Source of the DNA: Ostreococcus lucimarinus | Taxonomy: Eukaryota | Strand: one strand, 5' to 3' | Length of the DNA: 64,000 bases | Assembly (NCBI GenBank): GCA_000092065.1 | Contig: CP000584.1 | In this document: piece after piece, positions 2,889-52,545 of the stretch | How the letters are laid out: each line of letters opens with the position of its first letter | How positions within the stretch are numbered: position 1 is the first letter of the stretch | Made by a program: the position numbers and the translations under genes | Notes under the pieces: generated by a model | The model's input: the letters and a program-made list of their open reading frames with translations, nothing else | The model's database searches: none | What the model was told of the DNA's origin: nothing

Positions 2889-3266
2889 ATGCCCGCCGCC
2901 GCGCCACCGGCATCCCCTTCGACGCCGTCGGCGACGATATCTACCGCGCCCACGCACCCCGCCAACTGCTTGTGCTGCATCGGCGGCCCCGACCTGTCGT
3001 TCGAGCGCGCCGTCTTTTCCATCCTCGCATTGAAGTTGGGCTTTGAGTACGACACCGCGGCGAAGTTTATTCGTCTCTGCCGCGCCTCGCCTCGAATGGT
3101 GCTGAGTAAAGGCAAGTTTAAGGTCGCATCGAAGGTGCGAGGGAAAGATATCGACGCGCTGAGCGCGGAGGAGGTGCAGAGGGTGCAGGATGCGGTGCTA
3201 GGCGAGTACGCGGGGACGCTGGCGTTGGAAGAGAAGCAAAGAATCGACGCCGGTACGCGACGTTGA
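2889..3266 (+). CDS. hypothetical protein (125 aa); possibly a 5' exon of the downstream adenylation-domain gene
   Basis: ATG-initiated ORF with non-Arg-biased composition ('...MVLSKGKFKVASKVRGKDIDALSAEEVQRVQDAVLGEYAGTLALEEKQRID'). Its TGA stop is only 8 bp upstream of the next ATG on the same strand. Confidence 0.35.
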   Translation: MPAAAPPASPSTPSATISTAPTHPANCLCCIGGPDLSFERAVFSILALKLGFEYDTAAKFIRLCRASPRMVLSKGKFKVASKVRGKDIDALSAEEVQRVQDAVLGEYAGTLALEEKQRIDAGTRR

Positions 3267-3273
3267 CGTCGCG

Positions 3274-5865
3274 ATGGTGAACGCAGATGGACTACACACG
3301 GTGTGTGATTACGCACGATGGAGAGCGTGCGATCCCACGACGCGATTTCGCGAGGCGGTGCGATATTATGAAACGTTGAACGGCGCGCCGACGACGTTGC
3401 GCTTTGGCGAACTTGTCGACGAGGCGACGCGTTTGAGCGATTTTTTCGCGCCGTACGCGAAGTCAGCGGTACGTGACTCTCCGCCTTGTTGCGTGATCAC
3501 GCTTGAAGACGGCGTGGAAGTGTTCACATGCCAGTTGGCGGCGATGTTTGCAGGTATGGCGGTGTCACCGATGAGTACGCGAGATCCTGCAAAACGATTG
3601 GCGAGCGTCTTTGCAGACGCGGATGTCCGCATCGTGATCGTTCGTGATGGGGACGAGGCATTGAAGGTGGGCGAACTCACGAATGCGAAAGTTTTTACCG
3701 TCGAAGCGTTATTCAGGGCCCAACAACGATCAGCCACTGCGACCATCGCAGTAAAAGCCGACGACGCCTCGCACGTGTTTTTCACGAGTGGATCTACGGG
3801 GCGACCGAAGGGCTGCGTGGCTTCACACGCCGCGCTGTTGTCATACTGCGAAGCGAAGAACATTGCACATGAAATTGACGGTACAAGTGTTGTGTACTGT
3901 GCGAGCAGTCACATGTTTGACCCGCACTTTACGGATTTTTGCAGCGCCATCGTCGCCGGCTGTACGTTGACTTCAGCGTCGCGTGAAGTCACGTTCGCGC
4001 GACTCGGTGATGCTTTGCGAGTATCGAGCGCAACGCATTGTTTGACGACGCCTATTTTGCTCAGTTCGGTACGAGAAATTCCGAGTTTGAAATATTTGCG
4101 GCTCGTCGCGCTCGGCGGAGAAACGATGTCTAAATCGCTCGCGCAAGCTTGGCTCGATGCCGGCGTTCGAGTGGCAAACACATACGGCGTCACGGAATGT
4201 GTCGCGTATCAGACGTTCTGTGAGATAAAACAAGCGTCAAACGATGACTTGCGCACGTTGGGGGATCCACTTCCGGGTAATACATTCATATTTGCCGCCG
4301 ATCCCGGCGACGATCCGACGTTGACGGCGAAAGCGGGCGAGCTTGCAGAACTATGGATCGGCGGGCGCCAGGTCGGGAACGGATATTTGAACCGTCCTGA
4401 GCTCACATCGGCGCGTTTTAAAAATAATTTGTACCGAACGGGCGACATAGTTAAAGTTTCCTCCGACGGCCAGCACATTCTCGTCGGACGTCGCGACGAT
4501 CAAGTGAAGATAAGCGGTCAGCGCGTCGAGCTTGGAGAAGTTGAAGACGCGATTCGCCGTACGTGCAGCGCGTTCACACGTGAAGTGAAGTGTGTTCTGG
4601 CAAGTACAACAAAACAGCTCATCGCTTATTGCACTGGATCTTTCACGGACGTTGACACCGTGGTCACGGCGGCCATGCGATATGCCGTCGCCCGAGAGAT
4701 TCCTCAGCACATGGTTCCATCCATGTTTGTGTTTTTGGACGAGTTGCCGATGACGTCGACAGGAAAAGTTTCGCGCGCGGATTTGTCGCGGCGCGAAGTC
4801 GATGTGCGCGAGCAGGGATGCGCAATCAAGTTTGGTGAGTTTGGTGCGGATTTGGCACGAATATGGTCAGATGAGCTTGGTGTCGATGTAACGCACGGTG
4901 ATGCGGATTTCACAGCGAATGGTGGCGACTCGCTACGAGCGCTTAGAGTAGTTCAGCGAGTAAAAGCGCTCATCATAAAAGAAGACGTCGACGCTGGTGG
5001 TGGTACGTTCGGCGAAGCACTCGGGGCGTTTGCGCCCATCGAACTGTTACAGCGCTCACGGCTAAATGACTACGCGCGCTTTATTCGCGGCAGCGTCGAA
5101 GACTGGCCTTCAAGATATGCCACGGATTCAGACGCCGATGAAGCCGAGGCAACGCTCAGTGATATCGATATCGGCTTGCACGTATTGATTCGCGCATCAG
5201 CGGCAGGTCACGTGAGTTTGGTAAAGCTGCTCGTCGATGCAGGCGTTAGCGTCGATCCAAACTCACGCTCAACGCCGCTCCACGTGGCGTGCGCCAATGC
5301 GCGCGTCGAATGCGTGCGAGCGCTCCTTGATTCCGGTGCCTCCGTGAACGCGCTCGGTACTAGCAGAAGAACGCCGTTGATATTTGCCGTTTCTTCGCCG
5401 ATGTGTACATCTGAGCTCGTGAAGATTCTGTTGGGACGTGGCGCCGCGATTGGCGCAGTCGACGAGGACAAGCAAACTGTTTTGCACGCCGCGGCGCGGG
5501 TGGGCGCGGCGTCTTCGGTCATCGGCACCTTACTCGACGCGCAGTCTACTTCATCCGCGAAAGGTAAAGCGTCAAAAAAAGCGTTGATGTTGCACGTCAA
5601 CGCTCTCGATGTCTGGGGACGTACCGCCTTGCACTGGGCCTCGGTAAACGGCCATCGCAACGCGTGCAAATCGCTCCTCGAGCGAGACGTAGACGCATCG
5701 ATCAAAGATGTCAACGGCGAAACCGCGCGCGACATAGCCGAACGCCGCGCGCTGTGTAGCGCCCAGGAGCGCCCCAGAGGCGGTCGGCCGAGCACGTGGG
5801 GCGACATCGCCAACTTACTCGGCGGAAGCGGAGCTACGAAACACCTCAAAGCGTCTCTGGCGTAA
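3274..5865 (+). CDS. NRPS-like single-module enzyme: adenylation domain - thiolation (PCP) domain - ankyrin repeats
   Basis: Adenylation motifs 'FFTSGSTGRPKGCVASHAAL', 'NTYGVTECV', 'YRTGDIVK', 'GRRDDQVKISGQRVELGEVE', 'PMTSTGKVSRADL'. Phosphopantetheine site 'ANGGDSLRALRV'. C-terminal ankyrin repeats ('TPLHVACANARVECVRALLDSGASVN', 'RTALHWASVNGHRNACKSLLERDVD'). Confidence 0.85.
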   Translation: MVNADGLHTVCDYARWRACDPTTRFREAVRYYETLNGAPTTLRFGELVDEATRLSDFFAPYAKSAVRDSPPCCVITLEDGVEVFTCQLAAMFAGMAVSPMSTRDPAKRLASVFADADVRIVIVRDGDEALKVGELTNAKVFTVEALFRAQQRSATATIAVKADDASHVFFTSGSTGRPKGCVASHAALLSYCEAKNIAHEIDGTSVVYCASSHMFDPHFTDFCSAIVAGCTLTSASREVTFARLGDALRVSSATHCLTTPILLSSVREIPSLKYLRLVALGGETMSKSLAQAWLDAGVRVANTYGVTECVAYQTFCEIKQASNDDLRTLGDPLPGNTFIFAADPGDDPTLTAKAGELAELWIGGRQVGNGYLNRPELTSARFKNNLYRTGDIVKVSSDGQHILVGRRDDQVKISGQRVELGEVEDAIRRTCSAFTREVKCVLASTTKQLIAYCTGSFTDVDTVVTAAMRYAVAREIPQHMVPSMFVFLDELPMTSTGKVSRADLSRREVDVREQGCAIKFGEFGADLARIWSDELGVDVTHGDADFTANGGDSLRALRVVQRVKALIIKEDVDAGGGTFGEALGAFAPIELLQRSRLNDYARFIRGSVEDWPSRYATDSDADEAEATLSDIDIGLHVLIRASAAGHVSLVKLLVDAGVSVDPNSRSTPLHVACANARVECVRALLDSGASVNALGTSRRTPLIFAVSSPMCTSELVKILLGRGAAIGAVDEDKQTVLHAAARVGAASSVIGTLLDAQSTSSAKGKASKKALMLHVNALDVWGRTALHWASVNGHRNACKSLLERDVDASIKDVNGETARDIAERRALCSAQERPRGGRPSTWGDIANLLGGSGATKHLKASLA

Positions 5866-5924
5866 ACGCGCCTCGCAGAGTTACATTGTACATTCTAGAT
5901 AATCCCTCACGCAACGAACGCGCG

Positions 5925-6383
5925 CTACCATAACATATCATCATCCGCATCGTCTTCACCGTCCTCGATCCCCTCGCTCGTCGTCATCGCTCCGATCGCC
6001 CTCGCCGCGTGTTCCGCCGTCTCCGCGTCCGCCCCGCTCGTCGCCGCGAAGTACGCCGCGTTCCTCTTCTTCACCTCCCGCTTCGCCGCCTCCCCCAGCG
6101 CCTCTCGCGGGGCGTCGTCACCACTTCGACGCATCGCTCGCTGTCTCGCGCGCACCGCCTGCTTGTTCATCCGCTTCACGTCCAGCGCGTGTTTATTATT
6201 CGTGCGCTTTTTCGCCTTTTTCGCACCCGCGCCGCCGCCGCCGCCGCCGTCGCCGCCGCCGCCGCGCCGCGCCGTCGCCGTTCCCGCCGCGCCGCTCCCG
6301 AGCGACTCCAACGCGCGCGCGAGTTGATCCTTGAGCAATCGCCGCGACATGTCGTCCCGCGTCGCGTCGCGATGTCGCGCCAT
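5925..6383 (-). CDS. hypothetical small basic/acidic protein
   Basis: ATG at 6381-6383. Lys-rich segments ('AKKAKKRTNNKHALDVKRMNKQAVRARQ') are unusual for spurious ORFs in GC-rich DNA. Acidic C-terminus '...EDDADDDMLW'. Confidence 0.4.
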   Translation of the reverse strand: MARHRDATRDDMSRRLLKDQLARALESLGSGAAGTATARRGGGGDGGGGGGAGAKKAKKRTNNKHALDVKRMNKQAVRARQRAMRRSGDDAPREALGEAAKREVKKRNAAYFAATSGADAETAEHAARAIGAMTTSEGIEDGEDDADDDMLW

Positions 6384-6400
6384 CGCGACGCGCGCGCGCG

Positions 6401-7189
6401 ATGTCGCGCGACGCCGACGCCGACGCGAGCGACGCCGACGCCGACGCGAGCGACGCCGACGACGCGCCGCGCGGCGAGGACCTGTACGCGATCCTCGGCC
6501 TGCGCAAGGAGGCGAATCCGTCGGCGAAGGACATCAAGCGCGCGTACCATCGCAAAGCGCTCGAACTTCATCCCGATAAAAACGTCGGCGACGCGAGCGC
6601 GGCGGGAAAGTTTCAGACGCTGCAGCGCGTGTACGGCGTGCTGAGCGACGAGACGAAGCGACGGACGTACGACGCGACGGGAAGGGTGGAGGACGCGGAG
6701 TTGGGAGGGGAGGCGTTTCAAAATCTGTACGAATATTACCGCGGGGCGTATAAGGAGGTGTCGACGGAGGATATCGAGGCGTTCGAGCGGGAGTATCGGG
6801 GAAGCGAGGCGGAAAAACGAGATGTGCTGGAGCGCTACGCGAAGTACGAGGGAGACATGACGCGGGTGTTCGCGTGGGTGATGTGTAGCGAGGAGGCGGA
6901 CGATTCGCATCGATTCGCCGACGTCGTGGACGAAGCCGTGAGGGATGGACGCGCGGAGTCGTACGCGGTGTACGAGGCGTGGGCGCGAGAGGTGAGGAAA
7001 CGAAAGGCGCCGAAAGATCCGCTGGGGGCGCGGAAGGTGAAAAAGGGGACTAAGAAGGGTGGCGGCGACGACGCGGATTTGTTTGCGCTCATTCAACGCA
7101 AGAACGCGATGCGAGCGGATCAGGCGGATGATATGTTCGCCGCGCTCGAGGCAAAGTACGCGCCGAAGAAAAGAACGAAGAAGAACTAG
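6401..7189 (+). CDS. DNAJC9: DnaJ homolog subfamily C member 9-like J-protein
   Basis: J domain 'DLYAILGLRKEANPSAKDIKRAYHRKALELHPDKN...YGVLSDETKRRTYD'. Downstream region collinear with DNAJC9 ('GDMTRVFAWVMCSEE', '...FAALEAKYAPKKRTKKN'). Confidence 0.85.
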   Translation: MSRDADADASDADADASDADDAPRGEDLYAILGLRKEANPSAKDIKRAYHRKALELHPDKNVGDASAAGKFQTLQRVYGVLSDETKRRTYDATGRVEDAELGGEAFQNLYEYYRGAYKEVSTEDIEAFEREYRGSEAEKRDVLERYAKYEGDMTRVFAWVMCSEEADDSHRFADVVDEAVRDGRAESYAVYEAWAREVRKRKAPKDPLGARKVKKGTKKGGGDDADLFALIQRKNAMRADQADDMFAALEAKYAPKKRTKKN

Positions 7190-7221
7190 CTATTGTCAAT
7201 AATCTCAAGATGTGTGGACGC

Positions 7222-8922
7222 TCACAAGAAGAATCCTTTGCGAATGGGCGCGTTGGGAGGCTTGGCCTCGACGACGTTTGCGCCGAGCGCGTGCTTGCAA
7301 ATTTTGCCTTTCGCGTCGCCACTGTACAGCGCCTTACCATCGGTTGTTACCACAATGGCGTTCACGTCAGCGTCGTGAATAGTCGTTTTGAACATGAGTT
7401 CGCCATCCGTGACGCGCCAAACGCTTAATTCGCCGTCGCCGCGAATGATCGAATACGGTTTCGGCGCTTGCGCCGCTTTGGAACTTCCGATGACGATGAA
7501 AGGATCGTTCTTAATCGTACATAATGAGTTGACATATCCTTCCTGACCACCAACTGATCGCACCCATTGTAACGATAATTTGCCGCTCTTTCCTCGCACG
7601 TCGTGGATGCGCACGCTGCCATCCGCACCGGCGCAATAGAGCGTTCGACCGTCTTTCGCGATCGTCATCTCTCGCACCGCGGAAGTCATCTTCGTGGTCG
7701 AGTGAGGCTGCATCGGTGTGACTTTCGACTTCAAGTCCCATATCGCGATGTATGCATCGAGCGAACCACTCACGATGGCGCTGTTAACTCTCACCAACGA
7801 CGTGACGCAGTCGCTGTGAAATTCCAAATGTTTCACTGTTCCAATTTCTCTCTCACCCGCAGCAGCGCTCTCGAAACATCGATCATACGCATCAACGTCA
7901 TCGATGTCGTCGAGTTTGCTCGTATGCTTGAACGTGAGGTCCTCGCCACTGCTTCTTTCTTCGTTTGTAGGCGAAGACGTTAAATCCCACACATAAACTC
8001 TTCCATCTCGCAACAAGGGCGACGCCAGATAAATGATCGACAAGTCGTCGTTCGCCGCCATCGAACGACACTGTGGCGCGGTGTTTGTGTATTTGGACAG
8101 CTTTTTTACGTTGACGTATTTAAAAACATCGGCGAAATCGCTGTGCGGCGCGCTCCACGTCGTCGTCTCTCCGTTGTCCAGCGACACCTTACTCCATCCA
8201 CCATTTTCGTACCCGACGAGCGCTTCGCCGCTGGCTTTCGATATTTGCAACATCCGCACGGGTGTGTTTGCGTTGTTAAACTCGTCTCCGGTGGCGTTCA
8301 CCGGCGTTGGATAAAAGCTCCGCATCGCGCCAGCGCCAACGTCGCCGCTTGCTCGAATCTGCTTCACCACGCCGTTCGTCATCCCGACGTACACGCTCGC
8401 CCCATCCGGCGCGATCGTCATCACGCGCACACCCTCGCGCACGAACTCCCCCTCGCCTTCGCGCGAAACTGCCTCTGGAACGACGACGCGCTCGAACGCC
8501 GCGCGCGTCGTCTTCATCTTTTCCGCCCGCGCCGGCGCCGACGTCGCGGTCCCGCCCAAACTCAAAGTCGTCGTCGAAGACGACGACGACGACGCTCCAT
8601 CGACCGCGACCGCGTCGAGATCCACCATTTGCGGCGGTGTCTCCCGCGTCCGCGGTCGGCGATGCTTCGCGTACCGCCCCGCGACTTTCCTCGCCCTTCG
8701 CTCGCGATCGCCCTCCCCATCGAGCGTTTCTTCATCGACCACCTCCACTTCGCGTATCCGCACCATCGCCCGCGCCGCCCCGCCCCGCCTCGCCTTCGCC
8801 GCGCCGCGACGTCTCGTCGACCTTCCTCGTCGCGCCTCGCGCTCGCGCGCGCGCGCGTCGATCTCGCGCGCGTCCGACTGGTCAGAGACGCGTCGCCCTC
8901 CCGAGCGTTTTTTTTTAATCAT
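7222..8922 (-). CDS. WD40-repeat protein
   Basis: First ATG ('MIKKKRSGG') at ~8920-8922. Multiple WD repeats ('GRVYVWDL', 'YIAIWDL', 'GSVRIHDV', 'KALYSGDAKGKI'). The longer ORF-track N-terminus is Arg-rich junk. Confidence 0.65.
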   Translation of the reverse strand: MIKKKRSGGRRVSDQSDAREIDARAREREARRGRSTRRRGAAKARRGGAARAMVRIREVEVVDEETLDGEGDRERRARKVAGRYAKHRRPRTRETPPQMVDLDAVAVDGASSSSSSTTTLSLGGTATSAPARAEKMKTTRAAFERVVVPEAVSREGEGEFVREGVRVMTIAPDGASVYVGMTNGVVKQIRASGDVGAGAMRSFYPTPVNATGDEFNNANTPVRMLQISKASGEALVGYENGGWSKVSLDNGETTTWSAPHSDFADVFKYVNVKKLSKYTNTAPQCRSMAANDDLSIIYLASPLLRDGRVYVWDLTSSPTNEERSSGEDLTFKHTSKLDDIDDVDAYDRCFESAAAGEREIGTVKHLEFHSDCVTSLVRVNSAIVSGSLDAYIAIWDLKSKVTPMQPHSTTKMTSAVREMTIAKDGRTLYCAGADGSVRIHDVRGKSGKLSLQWVRSVGGQEGYVNSLCTIKNDPFIVIGSSKAAQAPKPYSIIRGDGELSVWRVTDGELMFKTTIHDADVNAIVVTTDGKALYSGDAKGKICKHALGANVVEAKPPNAPIRKGFFL

Positions 8923-9081
8923 TCGACGACCGTTTGGCCGCGGGACGCGACGTCGCCGCCCGCGCGAGCCGCACGCGTCGACGCGCGCGTCGCGCACGCC
9001 GCGCGCGCGAACGCACGCGAAACGCGGACGCGCGCGCGATCGACGCGCTCGGACGCCCGTTCGGTGCGGCGCGCGCGCGCG

Positions 9082-12000
9082 ATGCGGCGCCGTTTCGACG
9101 ACGAAGCCGCGGGGTGCGCGCGAAGATGCGAACGCGCGCGCGGGCGAACGCGCGGCGCGCGGTGGTCGCGCGGCGCCGCGGTGGCGATGCTCGTCGTCGT
9201 CGCGCGCGTCGTCGTCGCGCAGCGCGTTGAACCGATGAAGGCGCCGACGGTGACGTGGTTGGAACCGCCCAAGGGGCACGTCGCGGGCGGGACGACGCTC
9301 GCGGTGTACGGCGGCGGTTTCCTAAACTCGGCGCGGTTGAAGGTGAGGTTCGCGAGGGGCGAGGAGACGACGGAAGCGTACGCGACGTATCACTCGTCGA
9401 CGATGATCACGGTTGTGACGCCCGCGCGCGTCGGCGCGGGATGGACGCAAGTCACGGTGGCGAACGACGGGGAGACGTGGAGCGGGACGCCGAACGTGTA
9501 CACAAAGGGATCTGGGACGTTTTTGGCGTACGTCTACGACGATTCGTTGGCTGGATTTTACGATGGCGTGCGACAAGGGGAGAATACGAACGCGTATCAC
9601 GAGTTGTGGAGCGCGAGTAACACGACGGGGCCGTACATCGGCGGTACCATCGTGCGCGTCTACGCGCGCAACTTGGATTTGGGCTCGAATACGTTGTCGT
9701 CAAGCGCTACGTACGTAGGCCCGACAGACGGCGCGGGGTCGCCGAATCCGAACTTTCCAGACCCTAATGCGGTGATGAATAGTCCGCCGGTGCATGGGAC
9801 GTTCTATCCGGGCTCGAAGTTGACGTGCAGGATGACGTGCAACATCGATGTAAATCAAGACTCCAGCATCGCTAGCGACGGGTCGGAAACCTTTGTCACG
9901 GCGCAACCAGCAATTTGGCATAGCTACACGTCGGTTGAGTGCGAAACACCACCGATGCCGGTGCCAGTGGGCGATCCGATTCCGTCGACGGCGTGCCACA
10001 TGCACATCTCCAACGATGGGATCAACTACGATTACGCCAACGTTACATTTACGTACGCGGATCCGTTGCCGACAGTGACTAGCATTAGCACGGCGCAGTC
10101 TTCGGTTTGGGGCGCTCGAGGCCCTTTTGATGGAAACACCGAAGTCATCGTCAAGGGAACGAACTTCCTTCCTAGCAAGTATCTCAAATGCAAATTTGGG
10201 GGTATACCGGAGAGCGGTAAAAATTTATGGGAAAGCGACGACGTGTCGCACGTCGTCGGCACGCCCGGCGGACGTGTTCGGTGGGTTTCGAGCACGGAAA
10301 TTCGTTGTATAACCCCGGAGTTCGGTCCTGCGTCACAACAACGTCAATATCCAGCTGGTTCGACGTTAGCGGCCTCCATCGGGTGTTGCGCCGTGCTAGA
10401 TGTCACCTTTGATGCCAACAACGGCATTTCGTCCACCGTCACCATAGTCGACGGCGGGCGAGGCTACGCCACCGCGCCGGTGCTGACAATAATCGGTGGT
10501 GGAGGAGGGGGTGCGACGGCGACAGCGACCATAGACTCGAGCGGAGTCGTCAACGCGGTGACGATCACGAACGCGGGGCACTCTTATAATCAGGGCTCTG
10601 GCGCCACCGCCACGGCGACGCTCGACGCCTCTGGTGGAACGTTGAGCGCGCTTACGCTCACGGCTGCGGGAAGCGGTTACACCGTGCCGCCTGACGTGAC
10701 GTTTTCGTGTAGCGGCGGGGGTGACTCGTGTCTGGGTACGCATATGCAGCACGCTCGTGCTGTGGCAACTCTAGGTCCCGCCGCCAATTGTTTCCCCGAG
10801 TATGGATGCTACGACAAAGTTGTCGTATCGCTGCGACTGACGTTCGTCGGTAATACGTACACTTCCGCGCCTGTGGTTACGATATCACCTCAAAAGCCGT
10901 ACGTCTTGGTGCAGGCGAATGAACTTTTCACATCGGCGAATGATCCCCCGTCGATTGGGGCGTACACCATGCAAGGGAAAGGGGAAACCGAGCTCGATCC
11001 GCAGCTCTCGCACGGCTCGTGGGTGGACGACGGAAGCGGAGGGCGAATTTACAACGTCACCGACGCGCCTTACGACGTTGTCGCGGTCTCGGGTGTACCA
11101 GGAGCGAATCCTGGGCGACGTCTGTACGCGGTCAATCAATATAGTCAGAATAGCCCGGAAGATCGCGGTGATCTTCTCGCACCGCTGGGCCAAGCGGGAA
11201 GCGATGGGTCGATTAAACCGGCGCACCAGGATCTCGTACAAGTGAGCAACAATTACAACAAGTTCGGCGTTCCTGTGATCGGTAACGCGGCTGCAACGCC
11301 CACGCACGTTGGATATCGCGACAACACCGCAGCGGTAAAGGGATATTGGATGTGGAGTCGCAGTACGGGCTCAGCGAGCGATTGCCAAGTTTCCAACAAT
11401 CCGCCGTTGAACTTTTATGATGGCACAACGCTTATGGGACATAACCTCGATAAAGGCACGGGGTGGGTCGTCGCTGGCTCCTCAAACGAGTACTTGGGCA
11501 TTCCTGGAAACTCCGACTTGGGTCATCCGTCGAAATCGTGCTTGTACTTTTTGTACGGCGACATTTACGTATCGCCGTCGGGGAGCGACGCAACCGGACA
11601 AGGCACCGCGGCAAGACCGTACGCCACGATTCAAAAGTGCATCGATTCGGCGTTGACAGACGTGCGTGATTATCACGTGAACGCCGTCGGTGAGTCAAAC
11701 CCGAGCGTGCCCGCGAGGATATCGACGCAAATCACTAAATTCAACGCTGGGCGCTCGCAAAAGCGCGATGGAGGCGGCGGCTACGCGTACACTGTGAATC
11801 GCGATCGTTGCATCCTGAAAGACGGCACGTACTTCGGCCCGGGCAATCGACAACTTCGTGCCAACGGTCGCGTCATCCAGCTATGGGCAGAAAACGAGGA
11901 GCGAGCCGTCATCGACTGCGAAGGCTTCCCCGTGGGCAAGCAAGTCTACGCCAAGCGCGAGCCGACGCGCGTGAGCGCGCCGGGTTCGATCGCCACCCAG

Positions 12001-12084
12001 GGCGTCGTGCTCAAGCGATGCGGATTCAAGATGCCTTACGCCGCGGCGGATAAATTATTTTACCCCGGTCGTCCGACGACGTGA
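9082..12084 (+). CDS. large secreted/cell-surface protein with IPT/TIG domains and beta-helix-like repeats
   Basis: ATG candidates at 9082 ('MRRRFDDE') and 9187 ('MLVVVARVVVAQRV', hydrophobic signal-like). TIG-type motifs 'PPKGHVAGGTTLAVYGGGF', 'GPYIGGTIVRVYARNL', 'GNTEVIVKGTNF'. Gly/Thr-rich repeats 'TIIGGGGGGATATATID'. The 5' 900 nt of the ORF-track ORF is non-coding-like. Confidence 0.6.
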   Translation: MRRRFDDEAAGCARRCERARGRTRGARWSRGAAVAMLVVVARVVVAQRVEPMKAPTVTWLEPPKGHVAGGTTLAVYGGGFLNSARLKVRFARGEETTEAYATYHSSTMITVVTPARVGAGWTQVTVANDGETWSGTPNVYTKGSGTFLAYVYDDSLAGFYDGVRQGENTNAYHELWSASNTTGPYIGGTIVRVYARNLDLGSNTLSSSATYVGPTDGAGSPNPNFPDPNAVMNSPPVHGTFYPGSKLTCRMTCNIDVNQDSSIASDGSETFVTAQPAIWHSYTSVECETPPMPVPVGDPIPSTACHMHISNDGINYDYANVTFTYADPLPTVTSISTAQSSVWGARGPFDGNTEVIVKGTNFLPSKYLKCKFGGIPESGKNLWESDDVSHVVGTPGGRVRWVSSTEIRCITPEFGPASQQRQYPAGSTLAASIGCCAVLDVTFDANNGISSTVTIVDGGRGYATAPVLTIIGGGGGGATATATIDSSGVVNAVTITNAGHSYNQGSGATATATLDASGGTLSALTLTAAGSGYTVPPDVTFSCSGGGDSCLGTHMQHARAVATLGPAANCFPEYGCYDKVVVSLRLTFVGNTYTSAPVVTISPQKPYVLVQANELFTSANDPPSIGAYTMQGKGETELDPQLSHGSWVDDGSGGRIYNVTDAPYDVVAVSGVPGANPGRRLYAVNQYSQNSPEDRGDLLAPLGQAGSDGSIKPAHQDLVQVSNNYNKFGVPVIGNAAATPTHVGYRDNTAAVKGYWMWSRSTGSASDCQVSNNPPLNFYDGTTLMGHNLDKGTGWVVAGSSNEYLGIPGNSDLGHPSKSCLYFLYGDIYVSPSGSDATGQGTAARPYATIQKCIDSALTDVRDYHVNAVGESNPSVPARISTQITKFNAGRSQKRDGGGGYAYTVNRDRCILKDGTYFGPGNRQLRANGRVIQLWAENEERAVIDCEGFPVGKQVYAKREPTRVSAPGSIATQGVVLKRCGFKMPYAAADKLFYPGRPTT

Positions 12085-15587: not shown

Positions 15588-18500
15588 ATGAACTTTATTC
15601 GCCGTTTCGCCAACTCGAGTAATCCGACGCTCGACGCGCGCGACGCGACGCCACCATCGACGTCCGCGCCCGATGCGGCGGGCGCCCGCGTCGAGCTTCG
15701 ATCCGCCGAGACGATCGACGTCCCGCGCGTGATGAATTCGATGTTTGACGAGGGCAGGGACGGGGATTTGGTGTTTTCGTGGCAGTTGATGTCGGGCACC
15801 GCGAATGCGGGCGAAAGCAGCAGACGCGAAGCGACGAACGCGTTCTTCGACGCGTTTTCGGAGACGTACGCGCGGTGGGAACCGGCAAGGGCTAGGGGTG
15901 CAGATGAAGGGGACGATTCAGACGTCGGGTGCGCGGTCGCGCATCCTCGCGCGGTGACGCTCGCGGCGGTGGAGGACGCCGCGGGTCTGGGGGAACGGTT
16001 GGAGCGTGCGCTCACGGGCACTGTCGACGTCGGTGGAATCGAGCAGAGGATGGCGAGCATTGGTGTAGAAACCTTTCGAGCTCTGGAGATTATGTCGAGG
16101 TCGGCGCACAACAGAGTGTTCATGGAGCAGTGCGGGGCGAGTCGCGCGTTGGCAAACGCGTGCAAAACGTGCGCGCAGCGAATGTTGACGTTCAGCGCGG
16201 GGGCGGCGTCGGCTTCAAAAGAAAATTCAATCGAGGCTGGAGCGCTGTTGGAAGCGTTGCAGCACGTCGTGGAGCACGCGGTGAATGTGATTGATTCTTT
16301 CTTGGGCGACGCTTGGGCACTTCGTTCGTTCAACGAAAACGGCGCTTTGTTGGCTTTAATTGAAGTATTACGTGCGGAAAAAGTGGTCGTTGGTCGTGTC
16401 CACGGTGACGTCCGTAAGATGGCAATTTCAATAGAGCGAATGGCCATGCGCGCGATCGGGCGCGTCATGCACGGCGATGCCGCCGTACAAAAGAGCATAG
16501 CAGGAGCAGGAGGCTTGGATATTTTTTTTGAAGGCGTGTACCCAATCGAGGCTGACGTCAGCGTCGATATCGCGGGGTTCGAGACGTCGCTCATGAATCT
16601 CGAAATATCGCACACGCTACTTGCTGGTAATAAGTCCAACGTTGAGCGCGCTCAAGGCATTGGTTTGTTTACGCGAGTGGCCCGTCTGATGCGCGCGGCG
16701 AATGATTTGAGCGAAACACTCGTCTCAGATGAGGCGAGCACGTCAACGACGGAAGGCGAAGTCGCTGGTGTTCCATGGAGCGCGCAGCTCTTAGACGACT
16801 CCCTACGTTGTCATGAAGTCATCATCACGGACGGATATCCTAGTGAGGTGATTAAGAGACTGTTGAAATTCGTCCATCAAGACACCAGCGCCGCTGGCGG
16901 TTGGGCAAGTAAAGGAGCGAGGGAAATGATCTTAAAATGTCTCTTCGATTCGATTATTGAAGCGTGCTCGAGTTCAAAAGAGTCATTCAAGAGCGATTCA
17001 GAGTGTGTGAGATTTAGAGCACACGTGTTACGCTTTTTTAGTGACGCCATCGATATAGATCCCGCGGTCTTGCGCGTGATGCGTCAAGCACGCGCGTGGG
17101 ACATGTTGTTAGACGCCGATACGTACGGCGCAATTCCTTCAGTGGATCACAAAAATGAATATGAATCGGTGTCAGAGAGCACGACGTCGATCTTACGGCG
17201 TCGTGTACAAATTCAAACCGCGGCGTTACTTCTCAAAGCTTGTCAAATTGCCGCCGAATTGTCTGATTGTGTGGACGAATGCAACGTTCTGATCGGCACC
17301 ATCACGACGAGAGCAATACAGCCGTCGGTTGCGATTCGGCTTTGTCGCGTTCTAGAGCTTCTGCTAATCGATTCGTCGCACAGTGTGTGTAAAGCGTTAT
17401 CCGAGGTGGAAGCTCCAGGTCGACTTGCGGGGGCGTTGAACGCGCAATTGAAATGCTGGGGGTGTGACCAGGTAGCGTTCATCGGTGAAGTAGGAGCGAC
17501 AGCGAACTCCGCTGCTTTTGGTTCTACACTAAGCGCACTGAGGGCGTGTCTGAATGGTCCGGACGTGCTCGCGGCGTCGGCACTCAACAACGATGGTGTT
17601 TCTGACTTGATTTTCAACGAGCTTTTGTGGACAAACACGACTCGCGATTTAGCCATATCGGCCGTCGTATCTTTGGTGGGGTTGCGTCTGCACGCTCCAT
17701 CACCTCACGCCAGCGGCGCGCATCGTGAAGCATGGTCAAGCGTGGCGCGCCGATTCATCCAGGCCCTTCCCCGTGCACGAGGTACCGATATCACGTTGTT
17801 ATCGGCGATGCTTTCTGGGTTGCGTCAAATGTTGAACAATCCAAACGGCTCCGGAGACAGTCTGCGAGAATGGATATCGTCTGAAGACGGCGCAGAGTTT
17901 GTACAAATCGTTGCGCTTTGCGATGGTGACGCTGGTGAAGAGGTTGGGTTGGATGTCATAGCGACGTTACAGGCAGTGATCTCTAACTCGCATTCGTCAG
18001 CCTCAACGTTTGAGCGCTCAGTTGGATACGACACATTGATTGACGCCATACAGTGCGCTCGCGGCGCGGGTCCAGTATCCAAACCTCTGTTCGACGCCCT
18101 CATGAGCTTTGTTATTGATGACGACTATGGCACAGGGGGCGAGTCCAGCGGCATCGCTTTGCGGAACGCTAAGGCGCTACAAATGCTGCTCACTCTGATA
18201 GGAAACCTCGGCGCGTCTGACGAGTTAAAGGATGAGCTTCTCAAGGCTTTTAAGCAGATGTTGTCAGCGTCTGTGACGTCAAAAGCCACCGCAGATGCGG
18301 CTGGTGTTTTAGACTTCTGTCTTCAATGGTACGTGGATGCGAATCGCCGGCAAGCAGTACTCGAAGTCATCGCGCTTTGCAGCTCGTTTTCAATGTCCAC
18401 CAAGCACGTGCGTCAAATATTCCGTCTGTTGCAGGGCGACTCCATTTCAGCGGACGATCAATTGCAGCTGCTCCGGGTCCTACAGCACTCCGCAAAGCGA

Positions 18501-21500
18501 GTTGGTCCTTCTACATTTTTCGATTTCACTGGACCTGGTTGCGGGATTCACGTTAATAAACAACTAACTCTTCCAGTACGAAACGGCTACACCGTCTCGA
18601 TGTGGTTCCGCATCGAGCGGTTTCCGGAGTACGGCGGTCCAGTGCCGCTGTTTTCTTTACTATCGGGCGCTGGTAACGGCATTTTAGGAGAGTTACATGC
18701 GAACAAGCTCACGCTTGGCATTCGAGGATCCACGGGCACAGTTGATACCGCGTCGATCGACATCACAGTACGAGAGAACGAGTGGACTTTCTTAACGATT
18801 GTGCACCTTCCGGTGCGAATGTCGCAACCCCTGGTTCGTGTCTTCCTCGATGCTGGCATGGTTGGTCAGGCGAAGTTGCGTTACCCGATCAAGTCCACGG
18901 AAGCGATATCGTATTGTCGCATTGCTTCCGTGACGTTCGACGTTAGCCTAGAGAACGCGCACGTCAAGGTGTCACCGTTTTTCGGCCAACTGGGTTCGAC
19001 GCATATATTCGATGATGCCCTTTCGCAACCGGCGATTGCGATGATTCATGCACTCGGTGCAGATTATGTCGGACGTTTTAAGTCAACAGAATCGCAAACG
19101 GAAAGAATCCTTCAGGCAATCAGCGTGAACGCTGTCGAGGCTCGCGATACTCGCGAGTATCTCGCCGATCATCGACTGATTAGTATAAGCGCAGTCACCG
19201 TCGCCGGTCGAAGCGCTCAGTCGGAGGTGTACGACGTGAACGAATATGATTTGATCGGAGGGGCGAAAGTTTGCGTCACAAACTCAGTCAAAGACGTCGT
19301 GCACTGCCTCGGTGGTGTTCAAGTCGTTCTTCCAATCTTTTCTGACATCCTGCACGCCGCCGAGACGTCGAAACGGCGACAAATTGTTTGCGAAGGGGTT
19401 CATCTGCTCGTTGCTTTACTCGATGGAAGCAGACTCAATCAAGTTACGTTAACGTTGTGTGATGGGTACGCCTTGATTGCAAATCTTCTGCGAGAGAATG
19501 CAACGACTTTACTCTGTCCAGATTTACTCCCAGCACTCGACAGGCTTCGTCGTGCGGGCGGGATCGAGCACGAATCGGCATCGGCACGCATCGTCGTTGA
19601 TTTGCATCTTTGGTCCCTCGCCGATGACGCCACTCAAAAAGCGCATGGCGAGTACTTGTTGAGTTTGGCGACCAAACACTCGGATGGATTACGATTTCAT
19701 TTGCCAACAAGTGATCTCATCGATGCCCTCGATTTCACTCCAGGTGCGAGTGGAACGTCTCGTCGTCGAGTTTTGTTGGACGTGTTGAAGCAGCTTGTTA
19801 TCGACGCCCCGAATCAGATGATTGAGGAAACTGCGGAAACTATCGTTCACGTCATCGAAGAATGTGCCGACGAAGACACCGTTGGTGATGTTCTGCGCTG
19901 GCTAGTTAACTGCATGCAACCGGGTGAGGAAGTTCAGCCCACGCTCTACCAGGCTTTCACCAAGCTCGGCGGACCACTGCTGGCGCTATCGCCTTTGAGC
20001 AGGAGCTCCAGGCGAGTCCGCTCTTTCGCTCTTCTGTGGCTTGCAAACTTGATGCCTCCGCTCGAGGCTTCGAGCAAGAGTTCTGGGGGTGCCTCTCATA
20101 TATCTGCTGCTTTCGGCGCGGCCGCTGGTGCGCTGACTGCCACTCTCGGCGGCAAGTTCACGGCGACAGCGAGTCAGGATTTTGAAGTCGGCTTTTTCAC
20201 TGCAGTCGCGAACGCCCTCGAAAAATTCCCCCTCGATATCGCTGAATCCCGCTCGGCGCTCTTTGAGCTTTTACTTGGTGGCCAGGCGCTACCAGCGGAA
20301 AAAGTAGCCGAAAGGTTGAACAGGGAAAAGAATTCATCCGTGCGAGCTGCGGCTGGCAGGCTCTTTGCCAAAGTCACAGGCCACGGAAACGACGCGCAAA
20401 CCAAAGATAAGGAGTGTATTAGCGTTGGTGTACCCGGTATAGTCAATGCAGGCGCCGCTGGGGTGTTGCTTCGACTGATGAATTCAAGCGATAATGCGGA
20501 AATGCGTTTAAGCGTGCTCGAGCTGCTTCTCCAACTCGTGGAAGGTGCAAGCGTGAACGCACAGGCTGTGCTGGAGCAGCGAGGCTGGCAGACTTGGATC
20601 CTCCCCATCCTCAAAGACCACAGTGACGAAACGCAAAACGACGAGAAATCGATGGCTCGACGATTAATAACGGCACTTCTCTCGCACGCGGTGCTCAAGA
20701 CTGACGAAGGTCACCAGCACGTGTCGAACATGCTTGGCGTCATCGACATTCTCATCAAACGCGGCGTCTTAGCCGATGAGTCAGACTTAGCGCAGGAACT
20801 CCTTTCGGATTTGCTTGAGTGCATTCTCCCGACGCGAGCGTCTTCGTCCGAGCAAGACGAGTGGTCTGAAGTGCAAAATGTTGAGTCACCGATATGTCGT
20901 CGCAACCTTTCGAGACTTTTGCACATATTCGACTCAATCATTTCCGACACGTCCGCGACAGCGGCCGCGCTTGGAGTACCGAGTGCCTCCGATGCAAAGT
21001 CCAGCGTTAAGAAGATCTCTTGGAGATTTTACGACAACTTATGGAACCTATTAGATGCGATCTCTCCTCCTGGTCATCCCGTGGACGCGCCCGAAGAGAC
21101 GGCGGATGCCGTAAAATCCACAAACATGGCTCAAAAGCTGCACAGGCGAGCGAAGAGTATGATTCGTGATTTACCATTTTCGAGCAATAGCGAGAGCGAG
21201 TTTGATAGCGTCGAAGCCGTTGAGGCTCTGCGCAAGACTTGTCAGCGAATGGGATTCAGGTTGACCTTACTTTACGTGCGAGCGAGCGCGCTCGAAGAGT
21301 TGCAGACAGCACTGAATACGTGCATTGGACTTCTACCATCATTTTTGGCCCCAGTCTTGGTCGACAAGGATGGAAAAGCGATGGATACCGCGCCGCTAGG
21401 GAACAGAGCGCACTTGTTTATCGCGGATTTGATGCGTTACGTCGAGTTTGCTAAAAAGAGTGAAGATCCTGATGCGTCAACACGGTCGCAGCTCGTCGTA

Positions 21501-24500
21501 AATCTCGTTCGACTCGCATCTGAGGTTGGTAGACTTCTGCTTTCAGATTGCGCGAGCGTCGAGGAGTGCGCGCATTTGGACGGCCGTGATTTGATTTCTG
21601 AACAAAAGGTGGCAGCCGCCGCAGCGATCGAGGCCAAAGAGTCTAGGAAAGTCAAAGAGCTGCGCTCAAAAGTGAGTGAAAACTTTCTTTCCGAACGTAC
21701 GCGGCACGAGCAAAGGCAAGCGCAAGCCGAGACGGCACTGTTAGAGACTCATAAGTCTAAATTGGGTCCGGTAAGCGAGCGCGAGCGCGCACGTCGCGCG
21801 ATGCAGCGTCTGACGTTTGAAGAACGTTGCGATGTGCTCGCTCGTCGGTGGTCCGCGATGTTGCGCGACTTACAAGGTGAGCGAGGCGCGTGGGCGGCTG
21901 AAAACTGTGATGCAAAGGCGCACTGGAAACTCGACAAGTCTGAGGACTCATCGATGAGACGATCTCGTTTGAAGCGCGATTATAAGTTTGTGCAGTACGA
22001 AGACAATCAAAAAGGTGGCGAATCAACATTACAAAGCGATGTACAAGATATCCAAGCGGTTCGCCTCGTCGGCATGGGTCAAAAATGGAAGATGAATTCG
22101 GATAGCGACTACGTTGATGTCGATGATGTCGCAGACGAACTCGCAGAAAAACTCGCTGTGGACAAGGAGAACGCGATGCACAATAGGAGTAAAGTCGTGT
22201 TCAGCACGCCGGCATCACTCGTGACGCTCACGAGAACTGTACTGGGTAAGCTCAATGTCAGTCGTGATGCCGTTGTATTTGCCGCCGATCGTACGCATGA
22301 GAGTGCGAAAGATCATCGAAAACGTTTCTGGCGATGGAGCTTGAGTGAAATTGTCGAGGTACATCACATGCGATATCGCCTTCAGCACAAGGCTTTCGAG
22401 ATGCATTGCGCGGATCACACCAGTGCCTTTTTTGCGTTCGATACCAAGAAAACGGCGCGATACGCAGCTACGCGCGTGGCATCATCGGCGGGGGCGACTT
22501 TGATGAACAGACGTGCGAAAACTGAAGCAGCCGAACGCGCGAAGGAGCTCTGGCGCAGACAAAAACTGAGCACTTTCGATTATCTTATGGCCTTGAACGT
22601 CTTCGCCGGGCGAACGTTGCACGACTTGAGTCAATATCCCGTTTTCCCTTGGGTGTTGAAAGAATACGAAGCTGAAACAATAGATCTGGCCGACCCTTCG
22701 GTGTATCGAGATCTGAGAAAACCCGTTGGCGCGCTCAACGAAGAGCGTCTCAAGAACTTCGTTGAGAGATACAAGTCGCTGTTGGACGACCCTGACACGC
22801 CGCCTTTCCATTACGGCAGTCATTACTCATCGTCCCCGATCGTACTTTTCTTCTTGTTACGCCTGGAACCTTACACGAAACTCGCTCGAGCATTACAGGG
22901 CGACAGATTTGATCGAGCAGATCGCTTATTCCATTCGGTCGCGGAAACGTTCAAAGCTTGCGTAGAATCATCCGCTGATGTCAAGGAACTTATTCCAGAA
23001 TTTTACTACTCGTCCGAGTTCTTGACGAATACAAATGGACTAAAACTTGGGGTGCGACAGGACGGATCGACTATTGATGATGTAGTTCTCCCGCCTTGGG
23101 CCAAGGGTTCGAGGCACGAATTCACTCGAGTGATGCGGGAATCGCTAGAATCGGACTACGTAAGCGAAAATCTGCACCACTGGGTTGATTTGATTTTCGG
23201 GCACGCACAGCGAGGGGCCGCCGCGGTCGAGCGATGCAACGTGTTTTATTATCTCACATACGAAGGCGCCGTGGATATCGACACATTAGAAGATGATGAT
23301 CAACGGAACGCGATCGAGACACAAATCATCAACTTCGGTCAGACTCCCGCGCAAATTTTCAGGCGCGCGCACCCAGTTCGTCTGCCGCCCCAAGCGACAG
23401 AACACGTGGTTTCAATCTCTCCCGAATCGCTCAAACTCGCGACAGTTGTCTCATCCGAGTCTAACGGCCTACCGATGCGGGCGCAAGCGGTGGTGCACGC
23501 CACCGCGTACGATTCGCGTATTGCCGTGGTCACCGCTGGACGAATGGTTTCCATTCAGCGCTTACAACGTCCTGGAACGACATTCGGGCTGGGTGGCGTC
23601 GATCACTCAACCGCGTACGCGCTCGAACCAGAGACGACATCCCGGCTCATGCTCGAAATTGACGTCGACGCCGATTCGCTTGCGCATTCGCAATCCGTCA
23701 ATGTCGCTCTGAAAGGCAAAGTCTTGCTGAGTGTTGGCCATTGGGACAGAAGCATGCGTATTTTCGACATTGAGGAGGGGCGCGAGATGCAGCGTATCAG
23801 TGCACATCGAGATGTGACGACGTGTCTCGCGTTGTGCGAACTCGGGAGCTCGAGGAGCTGGGACGAGGCTTCGCACCAAATGGACCAAGTCATCGTGGTT
23901 ACGGGAAGTCGCGACACCACGCTCGCGATCTGGGAGATGGTGCTCCCTCAAGGAGGCTGGGGCTTTAGTAAAGGCACCAAAGTCCTGAGCGCCGAACCAA
24001 AAATGATCTGTTTCGGTCATGACGAAGCCATCACGTGCGTTGCTGTGAATTCATCGCTCAACTTGGTAGCGAGTGGCAGCATTGATGGCACCCTCATCCT
24101 GCACGACAGCCGGGATGGGCACATCGTTCGTGCATTGGAAAGCACCCCACCTGGGTGCATCCCATCGTCCATCGAATTGCTTCCAAAATCATCTCTCGTC
24201 GTGTGCGCGTGCGGCGTCGCCGGCGCGCTGTCCGTGCATGATGTCAACGGTGCCACACTCGCCAAATCGCTCAGTCGGCACGAAGCCTTTGACGCATTTT
24301 GCGTCACCCGCGACGAGCGACATATTCTCATCGGCAATCGTCGCGGAGACATCACTGTCCGCGCCGTGCATGATTTATCGATTCGTGCGCAAATCAACGT
24401 CGCCAACGCGGGCGTCGTCTCCATTTCACCCGTCGCGCGCGACGAGTGCCTCGTCGTCGGTCTTGCCGACGGTCGTGTGTGCCTCTGGGCGCCCGCGGCG

Positions 24501-24512: not shown

Positions 24513-24518
24513 CTGCAT

Positions 24519-24523
24519 TGTAA
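24519..24523 (+). promoter_or_regulatory. TGTAA polyadenylation-type signal
   Basis: 'gcatTGTAAaata' lies 7 nt after the BEACH gene stop. Confidence 0.4.
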
Positions 24524-24616
24524 AATAACTAGCTCAATCCGTTGATCCATCGTCGTCCTCGCGCGACATCGCATCTCGCGCCAGCCGCGCCAGTGACTGG
24601 CCAGTTGCGGCGCAAG

Positions 24617-25336: not shown

Positions 25337-25401
25337 ACGTCGCTAATGATTTGTAATCTTCACATTGTACTACGTGCCGCAAGTCGGTTTCTTATCGGTG
25401 C

Positions 25402-27909: not shown

Positions 27910-28090
27910 CGCGCGCGCGCGTCGCACGATGGCGTGCGACGGTTGTCTGTGCGCCAACTGAACTCGCTCGCGTCTCGCGCCTCGTTCGACTTGACTACTT
28001 TTGCTTTTTGTGTTACACGTGGTATTTCTAATGTGTGTGTTTGAATGTCGTTTGAATGTCGTTAATCGTGTTGTTCTGATCGTCGCGCGC

Positions 28091-34564: not shown

Positions 34565-35026
34565 CCGCGCGACGACGTGTGACGCCAGAGCGCCGCGCGG
34601 CGTCGACGCGACGACGCGCGACGACGCGCGACGACGCGCGACGACGCGCGACGCGCGATGTCGCGCAAGCGACCGCGCGCGACGCGCGATACGAGCGACG
34701 ACGACGCGCATCTCTCGACGGTGGTTCAAAAATCATCTTTGCAAACGGCGCGCGCGACGACGCGAAACGGCGCGAAGCGGGCGCGACGAGACGCGACGGG
34801 ACGAAAAGTGCGCGCGCGGGGGAAGTCGTCGACGGCGCCGTTGGCGCTGGCGGTGACGCACGATCGCGTGCGGACGCTGGAGGTGCGATGATTAGACGAT
34901 TGGGATGGGCGTTCGAGGCGACGGCGGCGCGCGGGTGCCCGGTTTGACGCGAGAGAACGCGCGCGCGCGAAGAGACTGACGAAGGCGCGCTGGCGTCGAG
35001 ATCGCGGACAGGAGCTAGTGGAGGAG

Positions 35027-52522: not shown

Positions 52523-52545
52523 ATGCGCGCGGGACCGCGCGCGAC

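Follow-up and report, generated by a model that had tools for sequence, protein, structure and literature searches.

An adenylation-thiolation protein ending in ankyrin repeats and its conserved upstream small gene in Ostreococcus lucimarinus

In a 64,000-nucleotide stretch of contig CP000584.1 of the green alga Ostreococcus lucimarinus (the window), one gene encodes a protein that combines an adenylation (A) domain, a thiolation or carrier (T) domain and C-terminal ankyrin repeats (ANK). The order is called A-T-ANK here. A small conserved open reading frame, ORF1, lies directly upstream, and the A-T-ANK gene is called ORF2 where the two are treated together. The features of the locus are listed below with their window coordinates and with amino acid (aa) numbers of the encoded protein.

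2889..3266, + strand: ORF1, conserved small protein, 125 aa, in a different frame from the A-T-ANK gene
3267..3273, + strand: spacer of 7 nt between the ORF1 stop codon TGA (3264-3266) and the A-T-ANK start codon ATG
3274..5865, + strand: A-T-ANK gene, 863 aa plus stop codon
3274..4473, + strand: A domain, large N-terminal subdomain, aa 1-400, with motifs A1 (42-47), A2 (93-99), A3 (169-180), A4 (215-218), A5 (302-308), A6 (359-372) and A7 (387-391)
3931-3933 and 4204-4206: pocket positions aa 220 and 311
4474..4803, + strand: A domain, small C-terminal subdomain, aa 401-510, with motifs A8 (405-424), A9 (476-482) and A10 (496-501, including K498)
4831..5103, + strand: carrier (thiolation) domain, aa 520-610
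4930-4932, + strand: Ser553, predicted phosphopantetheine attachment site, in GGDS (550-553; GGDS(L) to 554)
5104..5160, + strand: T-ANK linker, acidic and poorly conserved (0.27), aa 611-629, with a predicted local distance difference test score (pLDDT) <50 at 620-629
5161..5703, + strand: ankyrin repeats 1-5, aa 630-810
5704..5850, + strand: degenerate ankyrin repeat 6 with a family-specific loop and tail, aa 811-859

The stretch from 3274 to 5865 (+) is a single continuous ORF of 863 codons with an ATG start and no internal stops, and the A, T and ANK parts all share this frame. Its ATG is the earliest possible start after the upstream stop and matches the N-termini of the aligned homologues. 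The orthologue of Ostreococcus mediterraneus, 860 aa long and 59% identical, is a complete ORF in the MMETSP transcript assemblies, where two contigs cover it. Profile hidden Markov model (HMM) searches placed Pfam AMP-binding at aa 31-372 (E 3e-41, 141.9 bits, cut-off 29.9) and Ank_2 in three stretches from aa 638 (E 3.3e-36, 124.2 bits, cut-off 27.3), with PP-binding just under its cut-off. Thus, the architecture read from the letters alone in the first-pass annotation is borne out. That annotation had described a stand-alone A-T enzyme without a reductase, thioesterase or condensation domain, and the Pfam and NCBIfam scans agree. It had also reported all core adenylation motifs and a carrier serine; the ten motifs A1-A10 were all located at aa 42-501 and the GGDS at 550-553. 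Is the ankyrin part a separate gene? This was ruled out by the continuous frame, the recurrence of the fusion and the coverage by transcript contigs. The A-T-ANK architecture is not a gene-model artefact, because about 100 protein clusters and the two transcriptome contigs of the sister species show the same fusion. The window coordinates of the gene are correctly delimited, and the architecture is genuine and conserved.

To what extent is the architecture shared? A family profile alignment was made from 57 proteins of 30-99% identity, and the A-T-ANK order recurs in every full-length relative examined (the 57 aligned proteins and the seven longest tail carriers). Pfam scans of these seven longest tail-bearing proteins revealed A-T-ANK in all of them, with low-complexity insertions as the only difference. 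When the C-terminal tail was used by itself as the query of an exhaustive HMM search, 129 of 1.84 billion cluster representatives (50% identity level) matched, 104 with E <= 1e-10, and in the full-length matches checked the tail motif lies a few tens of residues or less from the C-terminus. The family occurs in Mamiellales algae, in seven chytrids (two Spizellomyces, Geranomyces, Chytriomyces, Chytridiales sp. JEL0842, Siphonaria sp. and Phlyctochytrium) and in the amoebozoan Balamuthia. A partial protein of the dinoflagellate Prorocentrum and a fragment of the cryptophyte Baffinella also belong to it, and many further members come from marine assemblies. With the family profile, members score from 1213 to 656 bits, while the next matches, bacterial condensation-adenylation-thiolation modules of nonribosomal peptide synthetases (NRPSs), reach at most 621 bits; these bacterial modules are the nearest relatives outside the family, at 28-33% identity. 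None of AASDH, Ebony and Lys2 is named among the best 120 matches of the profile search. In both homology searches, the best 120 are family members or bacterial NRPSs, with no protein named AASDH. Judged by these scores and the list of species, A-T-ANK is a small, sharply bounded and patchily spread eukaryotic family. One divergent member (P0062, at 5001-8381 of the 936-kb contig L066) lacks the canonical tail described below and has no upstream ORF1; a C-terminal extension of about 170 aa stands in place of the tail and may replace its function.

The first-pass annotation had called this architecture unusual, and the claim holds in part. No description of the family and no functionally characterised homologue was found in the searchable literature, so that no characterised protein of the same architecture is on record there. 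On the other hand, the gene is already annotated as 'predicted protein' in the O. lucimarinus and chytrid genomes, and ankyrin fusions have been noted in dinoflagellates, whose mono-domain polyketide synthase (PKS) and NRPS proteins often carry HEAT, ankyrin or PPR repeats as fusions (PMC6361889).

The A domain was recognised by A3 (TSGSTGxPKG), A7 (Y/F-RTGD), A8 (GRxDxQVKIxGxRVELxE) and the A10 lysine; Pfam AMP-binding_C gave a weak match only. The closest solved relative is LgrA, which aligns over the A and T domains (aa 73-565, E 9e-89). The ten pocket positions were assigned as D216, P217, T220, L257, V278, L280, T303, A311, Y312 and K498 by alignment to GrsA-PheA, with the numbering of this reference checked at the FDASVWE register. 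The ten-residue specificity code proposed for extraction in the first-pass annotation is accordingly DPTLVLTAYK for the window protein. Among the 57 members the code DP[G/T]LVLT[V/A]YK is near-constant (consensus DPGLVLTVYK), and its D, P, Y and K are invariant. D216 and K498 correspond to GrsA D235 and K517 and are found in 57/57 sequences. In GrsA, D235 binds the alpha-amino group of the substrate and K517 its carboxylate. All 12 Ostreococcus-clade sequences have T220 with A311, and the other 45 members have G220 with V/I311. The paired change G220T and V311A would roughly keep the pocket volume, which suggests compensation that preserves the same substrate.

Since the code is near-constant across supergroups, it suggests one amino-acid substrate conserved in the whole family. 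The invariant Asp (D216) argues for an alpha-amino acid, and the side chain is probably uncharged and medium-to-large, because the predicted lining is uncharged and the residue at position 239 is small. Such constancy would fit core metabolism or a dedicated modification better than a secondary metabolism that diversifies.

The carrier domain is complete, with a conserved remainder (G580-FGE..P588-x-ELL..YA) beyond an insertion. F546, G550, G551 and S553 are invariant, and the GGDS serine, Ser553, is present in 57/57 sequences. In the AlphaFold2 (AF2) model of the full-length protein (pLDDT 88.3; predicted template modelling score, pTM, 0.82), the carrier helices span 521-535, 553-568, 588-593 and 597-607, and Ser553 opens helix 2. 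Foldseek against the PDB ranked holo-EntF in the thioester-forming state (5t3d), the LgrA initiation module in the thiolation state (5es8) and DltA (3e7w; root-mean-square deviation 3.5 Å from the model) at the top. The modelled conformation is consistent with an A-T pair able to load itself, and the high pTM for a three-part protein hints at a defined domain arrangement.

The C-terminal part was described in the first-pass annotation as about five ankyrin repeats. The ankyrin C-terminus is real and the count slightly low, for the AF2 model shows six helix pairs (630-655, 668-686, 701-721, 736-759, 785-803 and 818-848), with a loop inserted in the sixth. Repeat 6 opens with a helix of the usual ankyrin type, which aligns to the Notch ankyrin domain. 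Repeats 4-5 carry conserved residues outside the ankyrin consensus (D730, Q734, R742, D779, W781, R783, W788 and N792). The loop and tail follow a family consensus, D-x-x-G-E-T-x-x-x-x-A-E-R-R-A-x-C-x-x-x-x-R-x-x-G-x-x-x-S-x-W/F-G-D-I-A-x-x-L-G-G-S-G-x-T-K, which the window protein matches as D812..G815-E-T..A822-E-R-R-A-x-C828..R833..G836..S840..G843-D-I-A..L849-G-G-S-G-x-T855. Cys828 is invariant in all intact tails, as are R824, R825 and R833.

Conservation, taken as the mean majority-residue frequency per region, is 0.55 for the A core, 0.58 for the small subdomain (A_sub) and 0.55 for the T domain; it is 0.27 for the T-ANK linker, 0.45-0.57 for repeats 1-4, 0.70 for repeat 5 and 0.77 for repeat 6 with the tail. 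The most conserved 40 residues in a row are aa 820-859, in the last ankyrin repeat and not at a catalytic motif. The Cys828 loop and the GGSG-TK ending matched no Pfam family and, beyond the generic ankyrin helix, no PDB counterpart. Does the tail occur in other architectures? A word-indexed search gave only short fragments, and the seven longest carriers are all A-T-ANK. The conservation of repeat 5, repeat 6 and the tail indicates a specific surface for a shared ligand or partner, or conceivably a catalytic site. A central role of the ankyrin part in the function has indirect support from this constraint, which is strongest there, and from the co-conserved upstream gene.

The catalytic alternative would make the ankyrin part and tail an off-loading catalyst: by transthioesterification the aminoacyl group would move from the carrier arm to Cys828, which would pass it on or release it, and the protein would be self-sufficient. 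The invariance of Cys828 together with R824, R825 and R833 in the best-conserved segment speaks for it, as does the failure of the Pfam and NCBIfam scans to reveal another release domain. I nevertheless regard it as highly doubtful. There is no clearly non-structural His or Asp partner, the loop is moderately confident in the model (pLDDT 72-80), and no transferase matched it in structure or sequence. To my knowledge, there is no precedent for a catalytic ankyrin repeat. A nucleophile of the GxSxG type in the tail was considered separately and rejected, as S852 varies (A or G in some members).

The small gene upstream is the second conserved element of the locus. ORF1 has an HxxxCxCC motif (H23-x3-C27-L-C29-C30-I-G-x-P-D) and a Lys-rich stretch (L72-S-K-G-K-x-K), and it falls into the same 90% cluster as O. 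lucimarinus XP_001417288.1, a 'predicted protein'. Homologues at the same position share 66% identity in O. mediterraneus and 39% at a distant Mamiellales locus. The homologues have 112-158 aa (about 120), with a conserved core that comprises H-x3-C-L-C-C-I-G-x-P-D-x-x-F-E, two helices to F-x-R-L, and L-S-K-x-K-x-K-x-A; conservation peaks at the Cys motif near the N-terminus and at the Lys-rich stretch in the middle, and the C-terminus is variable. A profile scan of metagenomes found 56 ORF1 loci (33-100% identity). In 52/52 testable loci, an A-T-ANK gene (26-100% identical to the window protein) follows on the same strand; the contigs of the remaining four end within 1-139 nt downstream and were left out. 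The adjacency was also found at L003, L005 and L067. A search for partner genes in related algae, as the first-pass annotation had proposed, has thus yielded a co-conserved gene directly 5′ of A-T-ANK in every testable Mamiellales locus. ORF1 is under purifying selection; its dN/dS is 0.10-0.23, and that of ORF2 is 0.19-0.20 in the same comparisons with unsaturated dS.

What kind of protein is ORF1? It had no Pfam or PDB match, and 17 homologues searched against Pfam to E 10 had no shared match, only four unrelated single-member ones at E 0.15-0.2. A resemblance to the HP..VVG.PD hairpin of FadD8 (E 1.5) raised the idea that ORF1 is the C-terminal subdomain of an adenylating enzyme, split off as a separate protein. 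The idea was ruled out by hhalign against the family A_sub (0.15% probability), by the lack of an AMP-binding_C match and by the helical, low-confidence model. ORF1 as an N-terminal exon, a frameshift partner or a read-through product of the same gene was likewise rejected, since the spacers differ in length modulo 3 and leave no room for an intron.

Could ORF1 be something other than a partner gene? It might be a cis-acting upstream ORF (uORF) whose conserved peptide tunes translation, or an unrelated gene held in place by genome compaction. ORF1 does lie immediately 5′ of the main ORF, and Mamiellales genomes are extremely compact, with synteny of DNAJC9, WD40 and TIG genes kept as well. On the other hand, the distance from the ORF1 stop codon to the first ORF2 ATG stays between -17 and +91 nt across the 52 loci, with no constant frame relation and at 48-74% GC, which is far tighter than ordinary synteny. 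The variable C-terminus argues against a stalling-peptide uORF; proteins of 112-158 aa with a conserved N-terminal and central part are the opposite of such uORFs. The dN/dS of ORF1, moreover, resembles that of ORF2. Both versions of this alternative, taken together, appear improbable.

ORF1 and ORF2 are probably carried by one bicistronic mRNA, with ORF2 reached by leaky scanning. Green algae have hundreds of bicistronic mRNAs whose ORF2 is read in this manner; a poor start context of ORF1, a short 5′ leader and a scarcity of ATGs ahead of ORF2 promote it, and some of the inter-ORF regions are shorter than 100 nt or overlapping (PMC7896298, PMC11291117). Counted over 16 lineages, which are related so that the counts are consistent trends rather than independent trials, there are 30 ATG triplets between the ORF1 and ORF2 starts, against 67 expected by shuffling and 62 in equal-length segments of ORF2; the -3 position is a pyrimidine at the ORF1 start in 15/16 (TTCATGC in the window) and a purine at the ORF2 start in 14/16 (GCGATGG in the window). 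In O. mediterraneus, each of two contigs assembled from short transcriptome reads takes in both ORFs; their 5′ ends lie 7 and 1 nt ahead of the ORF1 ATG. The pair resembles the published bicistrons in having a small ORF1 and a larger ORF2 on one strand with a short or overlapping spacer and no fixed frame, in its weak ORF1 start context, in the depletion of ATGs ahead of ORF2, and in being kept between genera. It differs in that the published ones were validated in Chlamydomonas, Chromochloris and Auxenochlorella, whereas the ORF1/ORF2 unit is proposed from sequence signs and contigs. The Mamiellophyceae were screened in those studies solely for colinear homologues of validated loci (PMC7896298, PMC11291117), and the pair would extend green-algal bicistrons to this class.

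Two further observations concern the flanks of the unit. A perfect 15-nt AT-rich tandem repeat of TTAATATTCAATACT (2760-2803, 2.9 copies), conspicuous in DNA of about 59% GC, sits in the 222-nt gap between the stop of the upstream gene (2666) and ORF1; it may be a promoter element of ORF1/ORF2. On the other side, 59 nt from the A-T-ANK stop, lies a convergent 152-aa ORF at 5925-6383 (-) that is rich in Arg, Lys and Gly and matches no Pfam family. In O. mediterraneus, the transcript contigs of A-T-ANK continue into the counterpart of this ORF, which would imply overlapping 3′ untranslated regions or a long antisense one.

Is the gene part of a biosynthetic gene cluster? None was found in the 64-kb window or near the gene in the lineages examined, nor was any condensation, thioesterase, P450, halogenase or other tailoring gene found there; the larger ORFs scanned in the window include no phosphopantetheinyl transferase, condensation or thioesterase gene. 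The remainder of the window is housekeeping in character: a FAD monooxygenase fragment, a glutathione S-transferase (GST), DNAJC9, WD40, EF-hand, BEACH and TPR proteins, a p300-type acetyltransferase, telomerase reverse transcriptase (TERT), a cyt-b5 desaturase, a gamma-tubulin complex protein, an ABCG transporter, malic enzyme, a plastid-type sigma factor, a glycine-transporter-family protein and a CCT-motif protein. The DNAJC9 of the window is in the same 90% cluster as XP_001417291.1 of O. lucimarinus CCE9901, and the DNAJC9, WD40 and TIG neighbours recur at other Mamiellales loci, while the neighbours in Spizellomyces, Geranomyces and L066 are unrelated to the algal ones. The conservation of the FAD monooxygenase, GST, DNAJC9, WD40 and TIG neighbours is plain Mamiellales synteny.

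Some of these neighbours deserve a separate description. The C-terminal part of an FAD_binding_3 monooxygenase with a hydrophobic C-terminal stretch (15-926, +) and the GST (1036-1890, -) also lie beside the gene on other contigs that carry an identical A-T-ANK protein and are absent at the Mamiellales loci L005 and L067 and in chytrids; the O. mediterraneus contig ends too near the gene to show them. They are probably not functionally linked to A-T-ANK. The ORF at 8143-12084 (+) has at least 1313 aa, and its counterparts in related loci carry TIG/IPT domains. Its low-complexity Arg-rich N-terminal region is probably not coding; it overlaps an antisense WD40 call (7222-9279), and the true start is likely well downstream of 8143. 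Farther away lie TERT (35018-38497, +), the cytochrome-b5-fused front-end desaturase (39804-41300, -) and a nuclear-encoded sigma-70-type factor, presumably plastid-targeted (52523-54169, +). All three are ordinary nuclear genes and bear out that the DNA is that of a eukaryotic green alga. The GC content is 0.51-0.55 at 16000-30000, which covers a 2974-aa BEACH-domain gene, the TPR gene and the p300-type histone acetyltransferase gene, and also at 60000-64000, against 0.60-0.66 elsewhere.

The surroundings bear on the most serious alternative, in which the protein, like the bacterial A-T proteins NovH, SimD6 and SyrB1, is a loading didomain that stands alone and serves a small-molecule pathway with dispersed genes. 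Enzymes encoded elsewhere would tailor or condense the amino acid in trans, the ankyrin repeats would merely recruit them, and the product would be a metabolite. Several facts fit this proposal: the closest relatives outside the family are the bacterial NRPS modules mentioned above, the Balamuthia copy was named 'SimD6' by annotators, single PKS and NRPS domains of dinoflagellates are often repeat-fused (PMC6361889), and Ostreococcus has large PKS genes (PMC4661987). It is weakened by the lack of any condensation, thioesterase, tailoring or similar gene in the places just described, and by a code and tail that are near-constant across distant eukaryotes, which is unusual for secondary metabolism. 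Overall, such a pathway seems unlikely but deserves to be taken seriously.

I favour a different reading, tentatively and at a little short of an even chance as a whole: A-T-ANK may be a single-module NRPS-like aminoacyl carrier enzyme that docks through its ankyrin domain, with ORF1 as its partner in Mamiellales. In the first step, strongly suggested by sequence, the A domain would use ATP to convert one specific alpha-amino acid into the aminoacyl-AMP. The aminoacyl group would then be transferred to the phosphopantetheine thiol on Ser553, for which a trans-acting phosphopantetheinyl transferase from elsewhere would be required. In the third and most hypothetical step, the six-repeat ankyrin domain would dock the loaded carrier with an acceptor, most likely a protein; the key docking part would be repeats 5-6 with their Arg/Trp-rich surface, the Cys828 loop and the tail, and Cys828 may take part in the transfer. 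The enzyme would thus be a dedicated aminoacyl-transfer (modification) device and not a peptide assembly line, as proposed for AASDH/ACSF4-U26. The best candidate for the partner or acceptor in Mamiellales is the ORF1 protein with its HxxxCxCC motif and Lys-rich stretch.

Several points weigh against this reading. NCBIfam TIGR01733 ('amino acid adenylation domain'), a model built from bacterial sequences, matched at E 2e-74 with 250.8 bits, below its curated cut-off of 317.4. PP-binding (PF00550) matched aa 526-563 with 19.9 bits, just below the gathering threshold of 20.8; what lowers the score is the insertion that separates carrier helices 2 and 3 at about aa 569-579, and the homologues P0305 (27.9 bits) and P0289 (24.7 bits) exceed the threshold. 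I know of no specificity code that matches DPTLVLTAYK, so no substrate was assigned, and D216 is the single residue from which the substrate class is read. The ankyrin domain could equally serve localisation or regulation. As to ORF1, the single-sequence model is helical with a pLDDT of 56.5 and no recognisable fold, and the gene was not found in the available flanks of A-T-ANK in two chytrids, in L066 and in the P0016 lineage. ORF1 could therefore not be a universal acceptor unless it is encoded elsewhere in these lineages. The two O. mediterraneus contigs that join the ORFs continue into the convergent downstream gene and may be assembly fusions.

A bolder version can also be formulated, in which the protein is a protein-aminoacylating enzyme: one amino acid would be bound to the carrier arm, the enzyme would dock on its own repeats 5-6, and the invariant Cys828/Arg loop would transfer the amino acid to one specific protein, in Mamiellales the ORF1 protein made from the same bicistronic mRNA. 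It is a long shot. If true, a thiotemplate (NRPS-derived) post-translational modification with ankyrin repeats as receptor or catalyst would exist across several eukaryotic supergroups. If, on the contrary, the protein does no more than load amino acids for a metabolite pathway whose genes are scattered, the gain would be modest, namely a new accessory domain on a known enzyme type.

What is added here is the definition of the family, its fixed specificity code, the hyper-conserved Cys-loop tail and the conserved ORF1-ORF2 unit. Because algae, chytrids and an amoeba share the same pocket, a single assay could serve for the whole family. About 80 residues, among them an invariant Cys, now delimit the functionally critical surface, and in Mamiellales ORF1 turns the question of the partner into a concrete candidate encoded in the same unit. 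In Ostreococcus tauri, gene targeting by homologous recombination works.

How does A-T-ANK compare with known systems? The bacterial stand-alone A-T didomains and NRPS modules, such as LgrA, EntF and DltA/DltC, are the best matches in sequence and fold over aa 35-610, with the same motifs and the same position of the carrier serine. They differ in having condensation, thioesterase or transferase partners in the operon and no ankyrin repeats, and the A-T-ANK protein itself had no match to PF00668, PF00975 or NAD_binding_4, the features of a canonical NRPS module. Unlike Lys2, CAR and ATRR, it has no C-terminal NAD(P)H-dependent reductase domain by Pfam. MbtH-like proteins offer an analogy only to ORF1: both are small and adjoin an adenylating enzyme, but ORF1 has no match to the MbtH family in Pfam and is predicted to be helical with a Cys cluster. 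Ebony, the beta-alanyl-amine synthase of Drosophila, is likewise a stand-alone A-T protein without a canonical condensation domain. It hands its aminoacyl thioester to an acceptor (PMC10531068) and is described there as having a dedicated C-terminal catalytic domain that selects the amine (Izore 2019, as cited in PMC10531068), whereas A-T-ANK has only the ankyrin repeats and tail after the T domain, in which no transferase fold could be recognised.

In logic, the known system nearest to A-T-ANK is vertebrate AASDH/ACSF4-U26. Its C-terminus consists of PQQ-like beta-propeller repeats. As in A-T-ANK, a single eukaryotic A-T module lacks a condensation domain and ends in repeats of a non-catalytic, protein-interaction type. 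The enzyme activates beta-alanine, no acceptor is known for it, and a part in post-translational modification has been proposed (Drozak 2014, as cited in PMC10531068). A-T-ANK has ankyrin repeats and the Cys-loop tail instead and occurs in algae, chytrids and amoebae rather than in animals; by its C-terminal domain and the lists of matches, it would not be counted as a member of AASDH. Single-module A-T enzymes with a non-catalytic repeat domain are poorly understood, and A-T-ANK may offer a second, independent and maybe more tractable case.

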